Part shown: positions 1 through 31,965 of the stretch, piece after piece | Position numbering within the stretch: position 1 is the first letter of the stretch | Layout of the letters: each line of letters starts with the position of its first letter | Assembly: GCA_964519305.1 (NCBI GenBank) | Contig: CAZFHY010000001.1 | Location: forward strand, 378,132-442,131 | Reading direction: 5' to 3' | Source: Candidatus Undinarchaeota archaeon | GTDB lineage: Archaea > SpSt-1190 > JASMDC01 | DNA: 64,000 nt | Notes under the pieces: generated by a model | The model's input: the letters and a program-made list of their open reading frames with translations, nothing else | Told to the model about the DNA's origin: nothing | The model's database searches: none | Translations under genes and position numbers: made by a program

Positions 1-246
1 TCCTCGGTCCCCGGTGGCTACACCACCTGGACGGGCACTTCCATGTCCACGCCCATGGTGACCGGCGCCGTGGCAGCCATCAAGTCAAGGTACAACGACA
101 TTTCAAACGATGATATCAAAGAGACGCTCCTGACCTCGGGCACCGAGGCCACGAGCAGCGTCCTCCGCCCCTGGCATAGCCTTACCGTCGAGTACAACGT
201 GCTCGACCTCGAGTCCGCCGCCGACCTGCTCGATGAACGTGCATGA
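1..246 (+). CDS. S8 (subtilisin-like) serine protease, C-terminal part (5' truncated by window)
   Basis: Frame 1 is open from base 1: SSVPGGYTTWTGTSMSTPMVTGAVAAIKS contains the S8 catalytic-Ser motif GTSMxxP. Confidence 0.85.
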   Translation, partial: SSVPGGYTTWTGTSMSTPMVTGAVAAIKSRYNDISNDDIKETLLTSGTEATSSVLRPWHSLTVEYNVLDLESAADLLDERA

Positions 247-265
247 TTCACGGCCTTGTTGGACC

Positions 266-375
266 GAGAAAGTTCGGGGGGCGGTGGTGGCAGCGAGGAA
301 GCGTAAACAGGAATAGGCGGCGCTTCCCCTTCCCGCCCCCCAGGAGGGTGCGAGAACGGAGTTCCCGTTCCCCCC
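266..375 (-). ncRNA. Putative structured ncRNA, copy 1 of 3
   Basis: TATATAT preceded by GAAAGG on the minus strand (400-412), G at 375. 5' hairpin, stem GGGGGCGG/CCGCCCCC, inner stem GGGGAAGCG/CGCUUCCUC, conserved GCUGCCACCACCGC (281-294), UUUCUC tail. Confidence 0.65.
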
Positions 376-399
376 GTCCATTAATCAGTCGTGGGCGGG

Positions 400-412
400 A
401 TATATACCTTTC
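400..412 (-). promoter_or_regulatory. BRE/TATA promoter for ncRNA copy 1
   Basis: Minus strand reads GAAAGG-TATATAT; no plausible CDS downstream. Confidence 0.65.
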
Positions 413-428
413 TAATCGATAGAATCGT

Positions 429-540
429 GAGAAGGGGCCGGGGGGCGGTGGTGGCAGCCAAAGGGAAGGCCAAGCAGCACTATTGATTAGGTGAACCTTC
501 CATCCCGTCCCCCGGGGGGAGAAAAGCACTCACTCTCCCC
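429..540 (-). ncRNA. Putative structured ncRNA, copy 2 of 3
   Basis: GGAAGG-TATAAAT (563-575), G at 540. 5' hairpin GGGGAGA/UCUCCCC, stem CCGGGGG..CGG/CCG..CCCCCGG, inner stem GGAAGGUU/GGCCUUCC, conserved motif at 445-458, CUUCUC tail. Confidence 0.65.
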
Positions 541-562
541 ATTATATCTAGTCATGCATGCC

Positions 563-575
563 ATTTATACCTTCC
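563..575 (-). promoter_or_regulatory. BRE/TATA promoter for ncRNA copy 2
   Basis: Minus strand reads GGAAGG-TATAAAT, 29 nt before G540. Confidence 0.65.
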
Positions 576-604
576 GTAGACGAGGTCCGGGCAGAAAGGA
601 TGTG

Positions 605-710
605 GAGAAAGAGGCCCGGGGGAGCGGTGGTGGCAGCCAAGGATGGTCAGAAAAAAACAGGGAACCCATCCTATGTCGTCCCCCCGGGAGGCGTGTTTGC
701 CGTTTTCCTC
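605..710 (-). ncRNA. Putative structured ncRNA, copy 3 of 3
   Basis: TATATAT (734-740), G at 710. GAGG/CCUC 5' hairpin, stem CCCGGGGG/CCCCCGGG, inner stem AGGAUGG/CCAUCCU, conserved motif at 624-637, UUUCUC tail. Confidence 0.65.
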
Positions 711-733
711 AAATTGGTCATGGCGTGGATGGC

Positions 734-746
734 ATATATACGTGCC
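734..746 (-). promoter_or_regulatory. TATA promoter for ncRNA copy 3
   Basis: Minus strand reads GGCACG-TATATAT, 30 nt before G710 and ~20 nt past the polB2 stop. Confidence 0.6.
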
Positions 747-761
747 GGACGTGAACTGCGC

Positions 762-2876
762 TCACCGTGCCCGTCCTCTGCGCGCGACGCACGCGGCCAG
801 AGTGAGCTGGTGACCACCGGGTGCCAGGCGCCTGGCGAGCTCCTCGGCAGGGATCCCGAAGGGGGCCAGGAGAGTCCCCGCGCTCCGGAGGAGTAGGTCA
901 GTGTACCGGTCGGGAGCGTATCCGTCGGCCTCGCCCGCGGGCACGGGCCGGCCCTCGGCACCCCACACGTACCGCACCTTCTGACCAGGAAGGAGCTCGA
1001 CGCCCTCGTCGCGCAATGCCGTTGCCACCACCGCCGTGGGCGAGCGGCCGCGGTAGTCTGAGCGGGACACCACCGTGCATACCTCCAGTTCATCGGACCG
1101 GACGTCACCGGACCGCACCCCTTCCACTGCCTGACGCAGCACCTCCACGGCACCGGGCAGGGCTTCGTGCACCGCGGCGAGATCGGGGCAGCCGGCGAGG
1201 ATGCCCAGGATGCGTGCCTGGAGCCGGCGCACCACCCCCGGCGCGTCCCTGCGTCGCGACTCGAGCCCACGCACCTTGAGCTCGCCGGTGACGTACCGAC
1301 CGAAGTAGCGGTTCGCCGCCGCGACCTCGGGGTGGAGACGCGAGGGGGAGAAGGCCAGCCATCCGTACACCCCCTCCAGCTCCAGTTCCACGTCCACGGC
1401 TCTACCGATGGCCGATGCCAGGCCGGCGAGCTCGTCATCCCGCCCCGCGAGAGTGCTCCCGTCCTCGTGCCGCAACCACAGGCAATCCACTATACCGTGC
1501 ACCACCGAGAACCCTGCCTCCTCGGCCATGCGAGCCGCGCGAACGAGCTTGTCACGACCGAAGGCGGTCACCGACTCGTGTGCCTCGATCCGGCCGAACC
1601 GGGCGTTGCGGTAGCCCAGGTACCCGAAGCATGTTACCAGCATCCATTTGAGCGACTGCTGGCGCCGCTCGTACCCCACGCGCTCCGCACCGCGCGTTGC
1701 CCGGGCCCGTCGCTTGTAGTGCCGCCGCCGCGCAAGCAGCGGAGCGATGGTCTCGGGCACCAGCCCGCGGCGCCTGCTGCAGAGATGATAGCCCAGCACG
1801 GGCACTGTCGCTACGCCATCGTCCCCGCAGCACGGGCACTGGACGGTCTCGGGCGAGATGTTGTGGTGGTCCATGATGGTGGGGTACATGGACGCGAAGT
1901 CCATCTCGGCCACCTGCTCCACGGCGCCCGGCACCGGCTCCAGCACCAGACCGCCCCGGTCCGCCTGTACCAGCTGCCAGGCGGTCTTGAACGCCTCGGG
2001 CTCGCCCTTGCGCCAGGGCACCAGCATATCGTGGCGCAGCGCCGTCGCCACCTCCATGGCGCTGATGGCAGTGCCCGGTGAGGTATGCGCCATGCGCTGA
2101 GGGGTGATACAGGATAGCCGGGACAGCTCGATGAGCCCCTCAAGCCCGCACCTGCGCACGAAGAAGGAATGGTCGCCGTCCACGTGCCATCGGCCGTGCA
2201 GTGTCTGGAACGGGGGCTTGTACACCACCCGCCCGTAGGATACGTAGGAACGCGCGCGCCGCCGCACGGCCTCCACAGGCTCACGGGATACCATATGGAT
2301 GTCAGCGCAGGGGCCGTGGGTTATCACCACGTCCGGGTCCCGTCCGATGCAGGCCGCGCGTGCGCTCCTTCCCCGGGACACCTCCACGACCTCGAGACGG
2401 GGCACCGAGTAGTCCATGGCATCGGCAGCGTCGCCGTCGAGCGTCACGTCACGCAACCGCCCGTCGTCGTCGGCAGTGAACCGCACCCGTGCCAGGGGGA
2501 ACAGCCCACGCTCGATGAGGAAACGCGTCTCGAGCGCCACGTCGCAGGTGCACACCTCGCCCGCCGTCCCCACGTCATCGCGGACCCGGGCCGCCGTCGC
2601 CTCCATCCGTGCCGGATCGGCGGGATGGACCTCTGCCACTGTGGCCTCATACCCGGACCACACGTCCGCGCGCCGTGCTGTCGCCACCCGGTCCACCCCG
2701 GGAAGCCGGCGCAGGCGGGGGAGGAGCCGGGCCAGGGGCTGTGTCCGCGGGAGCACGTAGAAGGGAGGACGGTAGGATGCTGCGAGGCGGACGGTACCTC
2801 CCTGCTCGCGCTTCACCCAGAGGGCGACCTCGCTCCCGTCGGCATGGACGTCAAGGACCCAACCCGTCCCCTGCAT
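762..2876 (-). CDS. polB2: Family B DNA polymerase, PolB2 group
   Basis: Motif A DFASMYP, motif B region KWMLVTCFGYLG, PolB2-type motif C HGIVD instead of YGDTD, degenerate exonuclease region, CPCC..C insert; typical PolB2 neighbours. Confidence 0.9.
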   Translation of the reverse strand: MQGTGWVLDVHADGSEVALWVKREQGGTVRLAASYRPPFYVLPRTQPLARLLPRLRRLPGVDRVATARRADVWSGYEATVAEVHPADPARMEATAARVRDDVGTAGEVCTCDVALETRFLIERGLFPLARVRFTADDDGRLRDVTLDGDAADAMDYSVPRLEVVEVSRGRSARAACIGRDPDVVITHGPCADIHMVSREPVEAVRRRARSYVSYGRVVYKPPFQTLHGRWHVDGDHSFFVRRCGLEGLIELSRLSCITPQRMAHTSPGTAISAMEVATALRHDMLVPWRKGEPEAFKTAWQLVQADRGGLVLEPVPGAVEQVAEMDFASMYPTIMDHHNISPETVQCPCCGDDGVATVPVLGYHLCSRRRGLVPETIAPLLARRRHYKRRARATRGAERVGYERRQQSLKWMLVTCFGYLGYRNARFGRIEAHESVTAFGRDKLVRAARMAEEAGFSVVHGIVDCLWLRHEDGSTLAGRDDELAGLASAIGRAVDVELELEGVYGWLAFSPSRLHPEVAAANRYFGRYVTGELKVRGLESRRRDAPGVVRRLQARILGILAGCPDLAAVHEALPGAVEVLRQAVEGVRSGDVRSDELEVCTVVSRSDYRGRSPTAVVATALRDEGVELLPGQKVRYVWGAEGRPVPAGEADGYAPDRYTDLLLRSAGTLLAPFGIPAEELARRLAPGGHQLTLAACVARRGRAR

Positions 2877-3129
2877 CCTCGTCCACCTCCGCCAGACGCG
2901 CGGTCAGCCGCTCGAGCGCCTTCTGGTGCTCCAGGAGCACCGCAAGCATCACCGGCTCCATGGCGAGCGGGCTGGCCGCCATGGTGGCGGCAGCGGCGTG
3001 GCCCCGGGCCAGGTCGAACAGCCGGTCGAAGGCATCCCGGTCCGGTCGCCGCAGCCCGTCACGGAAGGGCCGCCAGCGCGCCTCCTCGGCGGCCAGCAGG
3101 TGGCGGAACGTGGCCACGGTCCGGCCCAT
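2851..3129 (-). CDS. Small helical protein typical of polB2 operons (arCOG07300-like)
   Basis: MGRTVATFR..W.PFR..LRR.DR.AFDRLF pattern; overlaps the polB2 start. Confidence 0.8.
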   Translation of the reverse strand: MGRTVATFRHLLAAEEARWRPFRDGLRRPDRDAFDRLFDLARGHAAAATMAASPLAMEPVMLAVLLEHQKALERLTARLAEVDEDAGDGLGP

Positions 3130-3130
3130 G

Positions 3131-3796
3131 TCAGGCACCACACACAGCCCAGGGAAAGGGATCAGGCGTCGCCGCCAGCGGCACCACCGGCCCCCCCTCC
3201 AGCTGGAGCCGCAGCCCTGGGAGCAGCTCAGCGCACGCTACGGCCCGCCGCCGGGCCAGACGCTCCAGATACCCCTCATGCTCCCGGTCCAGGGTGACCA
3301 GGCACGCGGCGTTCGCGTATCGCACCGCGCGGGCGAGGGCGTCCAGGGTACGGCGGAAGAGCGCAACGCCCTCCCGTGCGGGCACGTCTGTGAACGAACT
3401 GGTCAGCGACAGCACCGCTACCAGCCGCGCCCCGGTGATCGCCAGCTGCCGGGGCAGCCTCTCTGTCACGAGCCGGGCCAGCTGGTGACAGGTGAACGCC
3501 CGGGAGACGGTCACGGCCTCCAGCACCCTCCGCGGCGGCGCGCCCAGGTGCTGTGCCCATCGCGACAGGGCCGAGGGGTCGAAGCGGTTGCCGCCGTCGA
3601 CCACAACGGCCCGCACCTCCCCCCCGGGCGCGAGCGCCGCCCTGGCCAGTGCCAGGGACACGGGGAAGGAGGTGGGTCGGAGCACGGTGACCCGGCCGGG
3701 CGCCAGGGGAAGCGCCACTGCCTCTCGACGGACATCGGAGGGATCGGTCCGGTCCAGGAACGGCTGCCGGGCCCCGTGCTCCCATGGAAGCGCCAT
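3131..3796 (-). CDS. Inactivated RadA/RecA-like protein of the polB2 operon
   Basis: VVDGGNRFDP and V.VSRAFT.HQL motifs with no Walker A. ATG 3796 lies ~31 nt below a TTTATTG box (leaderless). Confidence 0.8.
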   Translation of the reverse strand: MALPWEHGARQPFLDRTDPSDVRREAVALPLAPGRVTVLRPTSFPVSLALARAALAPGGEVRAVVVDGGNRFDPSALSRWAQHLGAPPRRVLEAVTVSRAFTCHQLARLVTERLPRQLAITGARLVAVLSLTSSFTDVPAREGVALFRRTLDALARAVRYANAACLVTLDREHEGYLERLARRRAVACAELLPGLRLQLEGGPVVPLAATPDPFPWAVCGA

Positions 3797-3855
3797 GGTA
3801 GAGATGAGCCGTTCATGGGTCAATAAAGCCGGCAGGCCGGCGTGCCGGTACTCGC

Positions 3856-3883
3856 GGTGTGTGAGCACACTCACTACCACACC
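3856..3883. promoter_or_regulatory. Nested inverted repeat upstream of the polB2 operon promoter (candidate operator)
   Basis: GGTGT-GTGAG-CACA-CTCAC-TACC-ACACC in the divergent intergenic region. Confidence 0.35.
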
Positions 3884-3972
3884 TAACACGGTCTTTTTCA
3901 ACCGTCCCGGCGTCGTCCTCTCTGGTGGGATGGACGGTACGAAAGCGCTCGCTGCTCAAGGGGGTCACATCC

Positions 3973-4713
3973 ATGGACATCATCATGCTGGTGTGCGTCC
4001 CCCTGATACTGGTGGTCGTTTGGGTGGACGCCGCCGTGTCCGAGGAGCGCCCGGTGAGACCATCGAGACCGCCGCCGCCCACGGGATATACCAGGAACGA
4101 GAAGGTCATGCTCTCGATCCCGACGTCCATCAAGATGACCCGCCAGAACCGGCAGCGCGACATCACCATCGCGATCAACAACATCAATCCCGACGACACG
4201 TGCTTCTGCGTCTACCCACACCTGCTACACGTGGATGGTCCCGGCTCGCGGAACTACACCATCGACCGTAACTTCACGACGCTGGAGGCCCGGCGCGGGC
4301 CGCTCGACGAGAAGACGAGGAAAAGATTGAAGCGCTACCTTCCATCGGAATGCTGGGAGGGGGTAGCCTCCTGCAGCCCGAACACGTGGTTCACGGGCCC
4401 CGGCCATATCGAGATCAACTTGGAGGAGGCTAACGCGCTGAAGACGAGGTTCAGCATCCCCGCCGATCCGCTCAGGGCGCCCAACGGCAGGTACGCGTTC
4501 ACCGTCGACGTGTGCGAGTACCGTCCCCCCTGCCTGACGTGGGATATAGCGGACCCTACGTGGTGCATCGAGCCTGCGGCGTGGTGCGAGGCATGCGAGC
4601 CGGAGAGCTGCCGTCAGAAACCGGCGCGGGAGTGTAACGGGAAGGTAAAGGACGACTGCTACGAGTGGTACGACTCGGAGTCGTTCCACGTGCAGCTGAC
4701 CGCACCGGACTGA
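3973..4713 (+). CDS. Secreted or membrane-anchored Cys-rich hypothetical protein
   Basis: N-terminal hydrophobic stretch, many Cys, NxT sequons; start uncertain. Confidence 0.65.
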   Translation: MDIIMLVCVPLILVVVWVDAAVSEERPVRPSRPPPPTGYTRNEKVMLSIPTSIKMTRQNRQRDITIAINNINPDDTCFCVYPHLLHVDGPGSRNYTIDRNFTTLEARRGPLDEKTRKRLKRYLPSECWEGVASCSPNTWFTGPGHIEINLEEANALKTRFSIPADPLRAPNGRYAFTVDVCEYRPPCLTWDIADPTWCIEPAAWCEACEPESCRQKPARECNGKVKDDCYEWYDSESFHVQLTAPD

Positions 4714-29925: not shown

Positions 29926-31965
29926 ATGCTCCCGATAAAGAAGGTCGTCCTGTACAAGCACGGCGTGGGCTACTTCGAGCGTGCCGGTAAGGTCAAGGGC
30001 TCGCAGCAGCTCTCGTTCACGTTCCGCCAGTCAGAGATCAACGACGTTCTCAAGTCGTTCACCTTCATGGACGCCGGGAAGGGTGCCGTAACCAGCATCT
30101 CCTACGACGCCTTCAAGCCCGTGGCCAAGGCACTGGAGGACGTCTCGTTCCGACTCGACGGCGACGAGAACCTCACCGAACTGGTGGGCCAGCTCAAGGG
30201 CGCAGAGGTGGAGGTGTCCACCGGTGGCAAGACCATCAAGGCCACCGTGACAGGGATCCAGACACGCACCATCGTGGAGAACGACAGGGAGCACGAGCAG
30301 CGCCAGCTGGTGCTGCTGGACGACGCGGGCAAGGTCAGGACCATCCCTTTGGAAGAAATCGCCTGGTTGCGGCCTACCGACGAGACGCTGGCCCGGGAGC
30401 TTCGGTTCTATCTGGATACGGTGTTCGCCGCCACCCGACGCGACAAGAAGACCGTCACGGTGTACACCAAGGGCAAGGACTCGCGTGACGTGGCCTGCGC
30501 CTACGTCGTGGAGTGCCCGGTATGGAAGACATCTTACCGGCTCCTGGTGGATGACAAAGGAAAGCTCACACTGCAGGGCTGGGCCATCGTGGACAACGTC
30601 ATGGACGACGACTGGAAGGACGTGGAGCTGTCGCTGGTCGCCGGCCTGCCGGTGTCCTTCCGCAACGACCTCTACTCGCCCCGGTACGCCTTCCGCCCCG
30701 AGATCGCCGTGAAGCTTGACATGGGCGTTCGGCCGGTGGACATCGAGGACGCCATGGAGGACGACGAGGAGTACGAGGAAGCGGGGGTGCCCTCCGAGAT
30801 CATGATGGAGAAGTGCGCGGACATGGAGATGCCCATGGCCAAGAAGGCATTGGCGTCCACCATGATGATGCGCTCACGAGCGCCTCCGGCACCATCCCGG
30901 GCCGCGATGGCCAAGGAGAGCTTCAAGGCCTCGGCCGTGGGTCGCGACATGGGCGAGGTGTTCGCCTACGACGTGGCCGAGCCGGTGACGGTGCTGCGCA
31001 ACCAGTCGGCCCTGGTCCCCATCCTCCAGCAGGGAGTGTCCGGAAAGAAGATCCTGGTCTACAATGAGACAGGGCGCGCAGACAATCCCATGGCATGCCT
31101 CAAGGTTACCAACGACACCGGGCTAGCCCTCGAGGAGGGGCCGGCCACGGTGCTCGACCAGGGTACCTACGTGGGCGAGACCATGCTCCCGTTCCTCAAG
31201 AAGGACGGCGACCGCACCCTGTCCTACGCCGTCGAGCTGCGGGTGAAGGTCACTAAAGAAGAACGGCACGTCGGCGAGTCCATCCAGGAGGTCCATGTAG
31301 AGAACGGAGCGCTCGTAGGCCTCAGCTACCGGAAGAAGGAGACCATCTACTACGTCAAGGGCGCGGTGGACAAGGAGGTCCCGCTGTTCATCGAGCACCC
31401 CAAGGAGACCGGCTACGATGTCATCAGCGAGGTGCAGCCTACCGAGGAGACCGAAAACTTCCGCAGGTTCAAGCTCCCCGTCAAGCCCAAGACCAAGGCC
31501 ATCAAGCTCATCATCCTGGAACGCAAGCTCGAGCGGACCCGCATCTACGTGCGCAACATGTCCACGAAGGACGTGAAGTGGTACTACGATAACAGTCTCA
31601 TCACCCAGACCGTGGCCGACGAAATCAGGGCCATCCTCGAGCTCTACCGGGACATCGCAAGGCTCGACGAGGAGCGGAAGAAGCTCGACGTGGAGCGAAA
31701 GCGGATCTTCGATCACCAGACACGTTACAAGGAGAACCTCACCTCCCTGGGCACGTCGTCCGGAGAGAACGAAGTGCGACAGATGTACGTGAGCAAGCTC
31801 AAGGTCCAGGAGACGCGTATCGAGGAGATCGAGGCGCGGTTCGAGGCGCTGGAGAAGGATAAACAGAAGATACAAGCCACCATCAACGAGCGGAGCGCGG
31901 GACTGGTCCCCCTGTCACGGAAGGACGCGGGCGCGCTGGCAAAGCTCAGGCGTCTTGTTGCGTAG
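29926..31965 (+). CDS. DUF4139-domain protein
   Basis: LPI..V.LYK.GVGYF, WK.SYRL, QGWAIVDN...DW..V.LSLV.G motifs; C-terminal coiled coil. Confidence 0.8.
   Translation: MLPIKKVVLYKHGVGYFERAGKVKGSQQLSFTFRQSEINDVLKSFTFMDAGKGAVTSISYDAFKPVAKALEDVSFRLDGDENLTELVGQLKGAEVEVSTGGKTIKATVTGIQTRTIVENDREHEQRQLVLLDDAGKVRTIPLEEIAWLRPTDETLARELRFYLDTVFAATRRDKKTVTVYTKGKDSRDVACAYVVECPVWKTSYRLLVDDKGKLTLQGWAIVDNVMDDDWKDVELSLVAGLPVSFRNDLYSPRYAFRPEIAVKLDMGVRPVDIEDAMEDDEEYEEAGVPSEIMMEKCADMEMPMAKKALASTMMMRSRAPPAPSRAAMAKESFKASAVGRDMGEVFAYDVAEPVTVLRNQSALVPILQQGVSGKKILVYNETGRADNPMACLKVTNDTGLALEEGPATVLDQGTYVGETMLPFLKKDGDRTLSYAVELRVKVTKEERHVGESIQEVHVENGALVGLSYRKKETIYYVKGAVDKEVPLFIEHPKETGYDVISEVQPTEETENFRRFKLPVKPKTKAIKLIILERKLERTRIYVRNMSTKDVKWYYDNSLITQTVADEIRAILELYRDIARLDEERKKLDVERKRIFDHQTRYKENLTSLGTSSGENEVRQMYVSKLKVQETRIEEIEARFEALEKDKQKIQATINERSAGLVPLSRKDAGALAKLRRLVA

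Follow-up and report, generated by a model that had tools for sequence, protein, structure and literature searches.

Paralogous small RNA (sRNA) genes that stand in tandem, each with its own promoter, are well known in bacteria, examples being LhrC1-4 of Listeria, PrrF1/2 of Pseudomonas and OmrA/B of E. coli. Bacterial multicopy sRNAs with C-rich loops act redundantly or additively. Archaeal H/ACA sRNAs are defined by an ACA or ANA box 3' of the lower stem, by a kink-turn or kink-loop (K-turn/K-loop), and by a two-sided, variable guide pocket. Paralogous RNAs can also sequester or scaffold proteins, as do the Y RNAs with Ro and the decoys of the CsrB/RsmZ type. To our knowledge, the small RNAs of uncultured archaea are almost unknown. 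Here, we describe a stretch of 64,000 nt from the genome of a Candidatus Undinarchaeota archaeon (the window; G000:C1:378132-442131, where G000 is this genome of 3.63 Mb, 99.8% complete) in which a gap of 515 bp between a subtilase gene and the gene of a family-B DNA polymerase (polB) holds three minus-strand units, A, B, and C. It can be held with considerable confidence that these units are real RNA genes. They are very probably the paralogous, separately transcribed genes of a new, genus-restricted family of structured noncoding RNAs of ~100-110 nt; sibling sRNA genes are a known kind of thing, and it is the family itself that appears to be new. The copies found in the same-genus genome of a sister species (G001) are referred to as A', B', C', D, and E', and a further copy of G000 as E.

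The likeness to the bacterial sibling sRNAs lies in the layout. As in those systems, paralogs of ~100 nt are placed side by side, each having, as read from the DNA, its own promoter and terminator and no open reading frame (ORF), and they share a short C-rich segment while the rest varies. The units differ from them in carrying the archaeal B recognition element (BRE) and TATA box, in having no kinship by sequence or in Rfam, in conserving the sequence of the helix that flanks the shared segment, in the predicted pairing of this segment in subfamily E, and in that no target was found. With archaeal H/ACA sRNAs, the units share a similar size, the possibility of several hairpins, and a hairpin plan in which a GC-rich lower stem of ~9-11 bp is followed by internal loop, upper stem, and apical loop. 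Conversely, inspection by eye of all nine family members found neither an ACA/ANA box directly 3' of the lower stem, which is followed by GAAC, GGCC, GGGCC, UUUC, or GUUU, nor a K-turn or K-loop (GA/AG) above the upper stem; the 5' side of the loop has only 2-4 nt in copies A-D, and the loop is constant instead of being a variable guide. Like the sequestering and scaffold RNAs, the units repeat a constant structured module over several paralogs whose other parts vary. They lack, however, the repeated GGA motifs of the CsrB type, and kinship with the Y RNAs of the Ro ribonucleoprotein (RNP) was rejected, as no TROVE/Ro gene was found in G000 (PF05731, 0 matches; 2 of 14 control genomes matched). 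Repetitive extragenic palindromic (REP) and miniature inverted-repeat transposable element (MITE) hairpins likewise consist of an imperfect palindromic unit repeated in intergenic DNA. Here, there are 4-5 copies per genome instead of tens to hundreds, each copy has a promoter, and both synteny and purifying selection are seen between species.

Repeated motif, promoters, and fold

The motif GCGGTGGTGGCAGC occurs exactly at window positions 281, 445, and 624 of the plus strand, where an earlier note on this DNA had placed it. When up to two mismatches are allowed, the window contains six matches against 1.30 expected, and six were reached by none of 100 shuffles. With at most one mismatch, the motif is found at five places of the whole 3.63-Mb genome, namely, the three units, one site inside polB, and one site on contig C18. 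A search for direct repeats returned two families of three copies, one covering the motif region with a spacing of 164/179 nt and the other the TATA region with a spacing of 163/171 nt.

In archaea, the TATA box lies ~25-30 nt upstream of the transcription start and is preceded by a purine-rich BRE. Each unit has such a box on the minus strand, as the earlier note had read correctly: in unit A, GTATATATC (407-399) starts 31 nt upstream of G375; in unit B, GTATAAATG (570-562) starts 29 nt upstream of G540; and in unit C, GTATATATG (733-741) starts 30 nt upstream of G710 and is 100% conserved in G001. The pattern GTATAWATS occurs three times in the 64-kb window, only at these boxes, against 0.20 expected, although it is a post hoc pattern derived from the boxes themselves. 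The purine-rich BRE is present in A and B, where BRE and TATA box together read AGAAAGG TATATATC (399-413, minus strand) and ACGGAAGG TATAAATG (562-577, minus strand), respectively. The SRP (signal recognition particle) RNA gene, the 5S rRNA gene, and many tRNA genes of G000 show RAAAGG followed by TTTAWAWA, which starts 29-31 nt before the mature 5' end. The arrangement in units A (AGAAAGG TATATAT) and B (ACGGAAGG TATAAAT) equals that of the SRP RNA and tRNA promoters, and the RAAAGG element is common to A, B, the SRP RNA gene, and several tRNA genes. The TATA start lies at -31 in A, -29 in B, -30 in C, and -30 in E, as compared with -29 in the SRP RNA gene and -30 in the 5S rRNA gene.

Each unit consists of a 5' hairpin followed by a GC-clamped hairpin which bears GCUGCCACCA. 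In the order seen in copies A-D, a variable 5' hairpin (absent in D) is followed by the clamp helix P1, a 5' joint of 2-4 nt (GAA, GAU, ACAU, or AU), the 5' strand of the inner stem P2, an apical loop of 17-33 nt, the 3' strand of P2, a 3' joint of 10-15 nt with (UU)GGCUGCCACC, and, after the clamp, a pyrimidine/U-rich tail. P1 of A-D has 9-11 bp of the form GGGGGRCGG / CCGYYYCCY and is nearly invariant. The earlier note had described a G5/C5 closing stem in the array; the actual stem has 10-11 bp with a GGGGGRCGG core and an A.C mismatch in B and C. P2 has 5-9 bp and is purine-rich, of the GGAWGG/CCWUCC type. The three inner stems that the note had seen to differ in sequence and still pair, GGGGAAGCG/CGCUUCCUC, GGAAGGUU/GGCCUUCC, and AGGAUGG/CCAUCCU, were recovered by an automatic stem search.

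The RNA body of unit A (262-375, minus strand) is divided into the 5' hairpin at 343-375 and the main hairpin at 275-342, with P1 at 342-333/284-275, P2 at 329-321/303-295, the motif at 294-288, and the tail CUUUCUC. It scores 79.7 bits with R1, a covariance model built from seven strong copies, and its minimum free energy (MFE) fold is the model fold. Unit B (425-540, minus strand; 75.4 bits) has the 5' hairpin at 516-540, the main hairpin at 438-515, P1 at 515-505/448-438 with one A.C mismatch, P2 at 501-494/471-464, the motif at 458-452, and the tail CUUCUC. In unit C (603-710, minus strand; 81.8 bits), the 5' hairpin lies at ~688-710, the main hairpin at 616-687, P1 at 687-677/626-616, P2 at 672-666/646-640, GCUGCCA at 637-631, and the pyrimidine/U-rich tail at 615-603. 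The MFE folds of C, C', B', and element F (described below) contain a closing helix that joins the 5' end to the 3' tail and would make a three-way junction; it was not found by eye in A and B and was dropped.

The only stretch that is invariant across all nine family members is GCUGCCA. The last three bases of the motif vary (CCA, CCU, CCC, or GUU), so that the invariant loop motif of the earlier note stands in its core and not in its full length. Its exposure varies as well: the mean unpaired probability of the motif is highest in A (0.94), followed by C (0.64) and C' (0.69), then by B, A', B', and D (0.31-0.48), and is lowest in E' (0.01). The apical CUGYUU occurs, as claimed, in all three units of the array, and also in A', but not in B', C', and D.

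Conservation in the sister species and spread of the family

By blastn, the locus was found in 2 of 41 related genomes, G000 and G001. The array of G001 lies between the same two genes and is 80% identical. The RNA bodies are conserved to 92% in C, 79% in B (including a loop indel of 7 nt), and 85% in A, as compared with 48% and 36% for the spacers between the units, 67-77% for the stretches from TATA box to start, and 67% for the stretch from the polB stop to the first TATA box. Six indels of 1, 1, 1, 7, 1, and 1 nt lie within or between the units; such sizes indicate that no ORF or reading frame is conserved, as had been claimed from the single sequence.

The main argument for selection on an RNA comes from the predicted base pairs. 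In A, B, C, and E, an automatic search located P1, P2, and the 5' hairpin, and 111 predicted pairs were traced into G001. Unchanged pairs number 87; of the 22 that changed, 16 are still able to pair on the RNA-sense strand. Where a Watson-Crick pair underwent a single change, a pair (G-U) is kept only on the minus, or sense, strand in nine cases and only on the opposite strand in one. Neutrality expects equal classes, and by our own arithmetic the split of 9 to 1 has a one-sided binomial p of ~0.011. This asymmetry suggests that it is an RNA, read from the minus strand, on which selection acts. In a model-based alignment of nine sequences, 89.2% of the cells pair, against 50.9-64.5% when the partners are slid; the value was reached by 3 of 500 shuffles.

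Several results weigh against the reading of the units as conserved structured RNAs and should be set beside these. Only one double compensatory change (G-C to A-U) separates the orthologs, and six of the 22 changed pairs no longer pair, three of these falling at alignment gaps. In the alignment of nine sequences, P1 is never altered on both sides, and the three pairs that are changed on both sides were matched by 400 of 500 shuffles. The covariation is thin because sequences come from two known species only, the copies in metagenomes being identical to those of G001. The identity of the stems among paralogs could equally stem from recent duplication or gene conversion. Folding energies are ordinary for most units: the z-scores are -2.37, -0.41, and -1.61 for the three units and range from -0.4 to -2.5 over the family, with the exception of E' (-5.9), which amounts to modest support. 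The claim that every unit folds in the same way holds for the common architecture and for the MFE folds of A and C; plain MFE does not give the common fold for B, and in B, B', and D it favours a competing UGG/CCA pairing in place of the model fold (GCUGCCACC region). The tails, CUUUCUC and CUUCUC, are weak oligo-U tracts. The nine sequencing runs listed for window 1-3000 are all of DNA. Finally, the idea of protein binding discussed below is drawn from the pattern of conservation, and no candidate partner was identified.

R1 has four matches in G000 and five in G001. A, B, and C score 75-82 bits, A', B', and C' score 71-87 bits, and D scores 66 bits, whereas E (G000 C4:158032-158112; 29 bits) and E' (31 bits) form a weaker orthologous pair. 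Copy E extends over G000:C4:158004-158100 (L015:1473-1570, plus strand) and its ortholog over L016:1500-1608 (minus strand). It lies downstream of a porB-like gene for a 2-oxoacid:ferredoxin oxidoreductase beta subunit and has three conserved TATA-like boxes upstream. It carries the clamp GGGGGGCGG / CCGYCYCCY, the core GCUGCCA, a 5' hairpin whose loop also holds UGCCACC, the TATA box at the position given above, and a GUUUUUC end. Between E and E', the promoter is kept, the stretch from TATA box to start is poorly kept, and the body is kept up to GUUUUUC, after which conservation is lost; this profile is the one expected of an RNA gene.

Copy D is located on a contig of ~1.56-1.6 kb in G001 (L008/L041, 1636 nt) with 47% GC, whose ends overlap by 77 nt. 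The element is also found on two further metagenome contigs, L129 (1680 nt; overlap of 80 nt) and L088 (1805 nt). The overlapping ends point to a circle or a repeat-bounded unit. The two longest ORFs of the D contig have no Pfam domain.

Element F (G000:C18 ~85846-85960, L005:1420-1535; in G001, L136:1590-1705) lies between convergent genes for an ATP-grasp protein and a PAS/DUF835/HTH protein. It is collinear with unit A, having a hairpin, GGGGGG, and then CCUCGCUGCCACCCCCGC, and is ~97% identical between G000 and G001 as compared with ~80% in the flanks. On the family-collinear strand, its 7-bp outer helix contains a G-U pair, and the sole substitution in the helix of G-run and C-run makes another. 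On the other strand, a TATA-like box lies upstream and a hairpin with U6 downstream, and the transcript of that strand would carry a complement to the unit A motif at 17 of 18 positions. We lean towards transcription from the family-collinear strand, in which case F is possibly a fifth family relative in G000.

Outside the two genomes, R1 gave no match in the other 15 genomes of the class (matches in 2 of 17) and none in 149 other archaeal genomes (2 of 151 in the sample of wider relatives); searches beyond 40 genomes ran with stricter filters. Larger collections were scanned with the pattern GGGGGRCG-N30-60-GCTGCCANNNCCGYYYCC, and the stretches obtained were rescored with R1. Among species-representative genomes, 47 stretches were found; only contigs of one metagenome-assembled genome exceeded 30 bits, with bit scores equal to those of G001, and the next best stretch had 27 bits. 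Metagenomes gave 69 stretches, of which only those on L096, L075, L088, L129, and L101 exceeded 30 bits, again with the bit scores of G001. Viral contigs gave one stretch, a chance match at 16.6 bits, and the plasmid and phage collections gave no match. A generic scan for GCTGCCA with a flanking helix returned 39 of 655 sites, within the range of seven control words (13-54), and the real ones are A, C, and E only. As far as these searches reach, the family appears to be confined to one genus of uncultured marine archaea, with 4-5 copies per genome.

Taken together, the synteny, the higher conservation of bodies than of spacers, the promoters of stable-RNA type, the 9:1 G-U asymmetry, the number of copies, and the lack of an explanation by Rfam, tRNA, or ORF argue for separate RNA genes, and the proposal of the earlier note, a new multicopy small-RNA family with its own promoters, is upheld on the same grounds.

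Candidate modes of action and rival explanations

According to the mechanism that we favour, RNA polymerase would start at the G ~30 nt downstream of a BRE/TATA promoter of the type used by the SRP RNA, 5S rRNA, and tRNA genes, and transcription would end in the pyrimidine/U-rich tract directly after the GC clamp. The RNA would fold into two hairpins, a variable one at the 5' end and the main one, in which clamp and inner stem flank an asymmetric internal loop with (UU)GGCUGCCACC on its 3' side. With low confidence, it is suggested that clamp and GCUGCCA together make up a constant module by which one shared partner, most likely a protein, recognises the RNA, and that the several strongly promoted copies supply dosage, the RNA being part of an RNP or a decoy that sequesters the partner. 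Apical loop and 5' hairpin would be free to drift. On balance, we somewhat favour the gene-family claim taken together with some mode of action through a shared partner; that the constant module binds a protein is put forward tentatively.

The principal rival is that the units are sibling antisense riboregulators, whose C-rich strand (GGCUGCCACC[A/U/C]CC) pairs with G-rich RNA, for instance, Shine-Dalgarno (SD)-like GGUGG/GGAGGUG, the copies affecting translation or stability in a redundant or additive manner. Genes in several copies, each with a promoter of its own, suit such regulators, and the motif lies on the 3' side of the internal loop, where it is predicted to be largely free in A and, less so, in C and C'. 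The 3' end of the 16S rRNA of G000 is GGAUCACCUCCU, and in a crude set of 694 ORFs the region upstream of the first ATG is enriched in SD-like words (2.4-3.6-fold) and in GGTGG (1.9-fold). The anti-SD likeness that the earlier note had pointed out is exact, as CACCUCC, only in B' and E; A-D otherwise have CACCACC or CACCCCC. The central base of the supposed seed is A, U, or C, E' has GCUGCCAGUU, and by prediction the motif is no more than partly unpaired in B, B', D, and A' and is paired in E'. Matches to the complement of the motif are of 10-12 nt, scattered in coding sequence, and none exceeds 12 nt. The coding strand of polB at window 1035-1020 is complementary to the unit A motif at 15 of 16 positions, 13 of them contiguous; the site is lost in G001 through two synonymous changes, and the polB mRNA was set aside as a target, the match being a coincidence. 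Duplexes with tRNAs and the 16S, 5S, SRP, and RNase P RNAs reach -20.5 kcal/mol at best, against a median of -20.9 kcal/mol for shuffled motifs, 113 of 200 shuffles being as good. The apical loops, which the earlier note had considered as possible guides, are the fastest-evolving part between orthologs. In G000, complements with at most three mismatches were found only at their own locus for loops B and C, and at 7 places for loop A against 4-29 for shuffles; in the collections, loop B was the one loop scanned, and an exact search of viral contigs with its 22 nt, an insensitive test, gave none. Drifting loops and the lack of a complement argue against guides for conserved targets. Conversely, even E and E', which otherwise share little with A-D and whose motif is predicted to pair in cis, keep the sequence of the clamp (not its pairing alone), the first P2 pairs, and GCUGCCA. 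Since clamp and GCUGCCA are kept where the motif is predicted to be paired, and no enriched or conserved complement was found, a module for a shared partner is preferred to a seed; the conserved clamp, P2 start, and GCUGCCA, together with the drifting loops, place a scaffold or decoy first and a sibling riboregulator second. We regard an antisense role of the units as possible but doubtful, and action of the motif as an antisense seed as unlikely to the same degree. Within the decoy or RNP reading, a more specific and improbable variant is that the units display a mimic of a tRNA 3' end or of the anti-SD (GCC-ACC-A / CACCUCC) and titrate a translation-related or tRNA-end-binding factor; F, if transcribed from the other strand, would carry at its 5' end a complement of the unit A motif at 17 of 18 positions and could be a dedicated antagonist. 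The earlier note had likened the exposed ACCA to a tRNA 3' end; mimicry of a specific tRNA acceptor was rejected, as none of 38 predicted tRNAs starts with a strand matching GGCUGCC-ACCA. Mimicry of an rRNA site was rejected as well, words shared with the rRNA operon having at most 12 nt.

Explanations that dispense with a functional RNA gene fare worse. A selfish or decaying repeat without host function, of REP/MITE type or left by a mobile element, is suggested by the restriction of the family to one genus and by the D contig, with its low GC and with end overlaps that belong to a repeat family having members on G000 contig C8 as well, close to a tRNA gene. It is very unlikely, in view of the low copy number, the absence of terminal inverted repeats or target duplications, and the plasmid, phage, and viral collections, which gave no match; in addition, the array, E, and F are syntenic in both species and more conserved than their flanks, and the array has a housekeeping neighbourhood (tRNase Z-like, PAC2, methyltransferase, and ABC transporter genes). 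Hundreds of dispersed copies without promoters, which the earlier note had named as the outcome that would count against it, are not what the model search of the genome and its relatives returned. The units might instead act on the DNA level by polB, as protein-binding sites or cruciform repeats (origin-like origin recognition boxes, iterons, or regulator sites), with the TATA-like tracts serving as AT-rich unwinding segments. Three direct repeats ~165-180 bp apart in intergenic DNA, near a polymerase gene and a Rad51-like gene, would suit this, and the G-run in the repeats recalls archaeal origin boxes, which contain a G-run. The strand-asymmetric G-U pattern is, however, expected of RNA and not of DNA, the repeats are all direct instead of being inverted around an AT-rich core, and E and D, each of which is found singly at an unrelated locus, show the same promoter geometry. 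Furthermore, the sole Orc1/Cdc6 match (Cdc6_C) lies on another contig, C2, and cumulative GC skew has no extremum or turning point near 378 kb of C1, so that a replication origin was rejected and a DNA-level role in general is judged highly improbable. Scarcely more can be said for cis-acting 3' structures that would not be separate genes, whether they terminate or stabilise the polB mRNA or provide antisense cover to that of the subtilase. The units do follow the polB stop directly, on the same strand, and run toward the 3' end of the subtilase gene. This would leave unexplained the near-consensus BRE/TATA of each unit at the distance used by stable-RNA genes, the modest conservation between the polB stop and the first TATA box, and the presence of E and D at unrelated loci.

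If the constant module binds a protein or mimics the end of a tRNA or rRNA, the family would represent a new archaeal RNP or decoy; if it does neither, it would be one more lineage-specific sRNA family. A conserved RNA in several copies with promoters of stable-RNA type is probably abundant and should be readily picked up in metatranscriptomes. An Rfam-style model can be built, and probes and pull-downs designed, from the boundaries, strand, and structure as now defined.

Known classes, neighbouring genes, and further observations

The earlier note had recognised no known layout (tRNA, C/D, H/ACA, SRP, or CRISPR, short palindromic repeats that are clustered and regularly interspaced), and the searches agree with it. 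Rfam 15 gave no match at gathering score in the 64-kb window. At E <=10, window 200-800 had seven matches, the best at 22.1 bits against a threshold of 70, all to eukaryotic or viral microRNA and long noncoding RNA models. Nothing was found by Rfam on loci E, F, and D, the sole match being a tRNA on an extra locus (L135). With ARAGORN, neither the window nor any of loci L008, L005, L015, L016, L088, and L129 gave a tRNA. The canonical 5S (84.5 bits), SRP (146.5 bits), and RNase P (135 bits) RNAs are all present above their cut-offs elsewhere in G000, so that a diverged copy of one of them was rejected. C/D box RNAs have box C (RUGAUGA) and box D (CUGA) at their ends and internal C'/D' boxes; by eye, RUGAUGA is present in no unit and CUGA only in the loop of unit C, and Rfam gave no C/D match. 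The spacing of 164-179 bp, the promoter of each unit, and the absence of the motif in array form elsewhere in the genome do not agree with a CRISPR array. In the literature, as judged by titles and the openings of abstracts, nothing relevant was found on the motif strings or on tandem small RNAs of archaea.

The array is flanked by the 3' end of the convergent subtilase gene (window 1-246, plus strand; Pfam Peptidase_S8) and, upstream on its own strand, by the polymerase gene (762-2876, minus strand; 704 aa; Pfam DNA_pol_B, E = 1.7e-25). The polymerase ORF scores 389 bits with the NCBIfam model 'type B DNA-directed DNA polymerase', under the cut-off of 516. Two tandem subtilase-like ORFs of ~400 aa each converge on the array; they occupy the plus strand from ~2.2 kb before the first letter of the window to window 246. 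Next to polB, a weak Rad51/RadA-like ORF is found at window 3131-3901 (minus strand; Pfam E = 4.3e-05), and beside it an ORF of 262 aa at window 3925-4713 (plus strand) with no Pfam or NCBIfam match. The housekeeping genes of the neighbourhood also include an M20 peptidase and DUF63.

The overlapping ends of the D contig consist of a repeat of ~60-75 nt (AACAACCGGCCTTCTAGCTCCGG...), four copies of which lie on G000:C8 (~660, 2374, 129327, and 129885; L134, L135). Two of the C8 copies are placed 1-1.6 kb downstream of a tRNA-Cys gene (L135:773-843), and the repeat may be an integration hotspot or an attachment site (att)-like repeat. A second hairpin on the D contig, at L008:920-970, is similar to the hairpin of F. 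G000 and G001 measure 3.6-3.8 Mb (G000 has ~60% GC) and are unusually large for their class, the 15 other genomes of which measure 0.6-1.2 Mb. On G000, ARAGORN called a tRNA of 95 nt with the four-base anticodon ccag (Trp or Leu) at coordinates 30529-30623, which is possibly a misread intron-containing tRNA.

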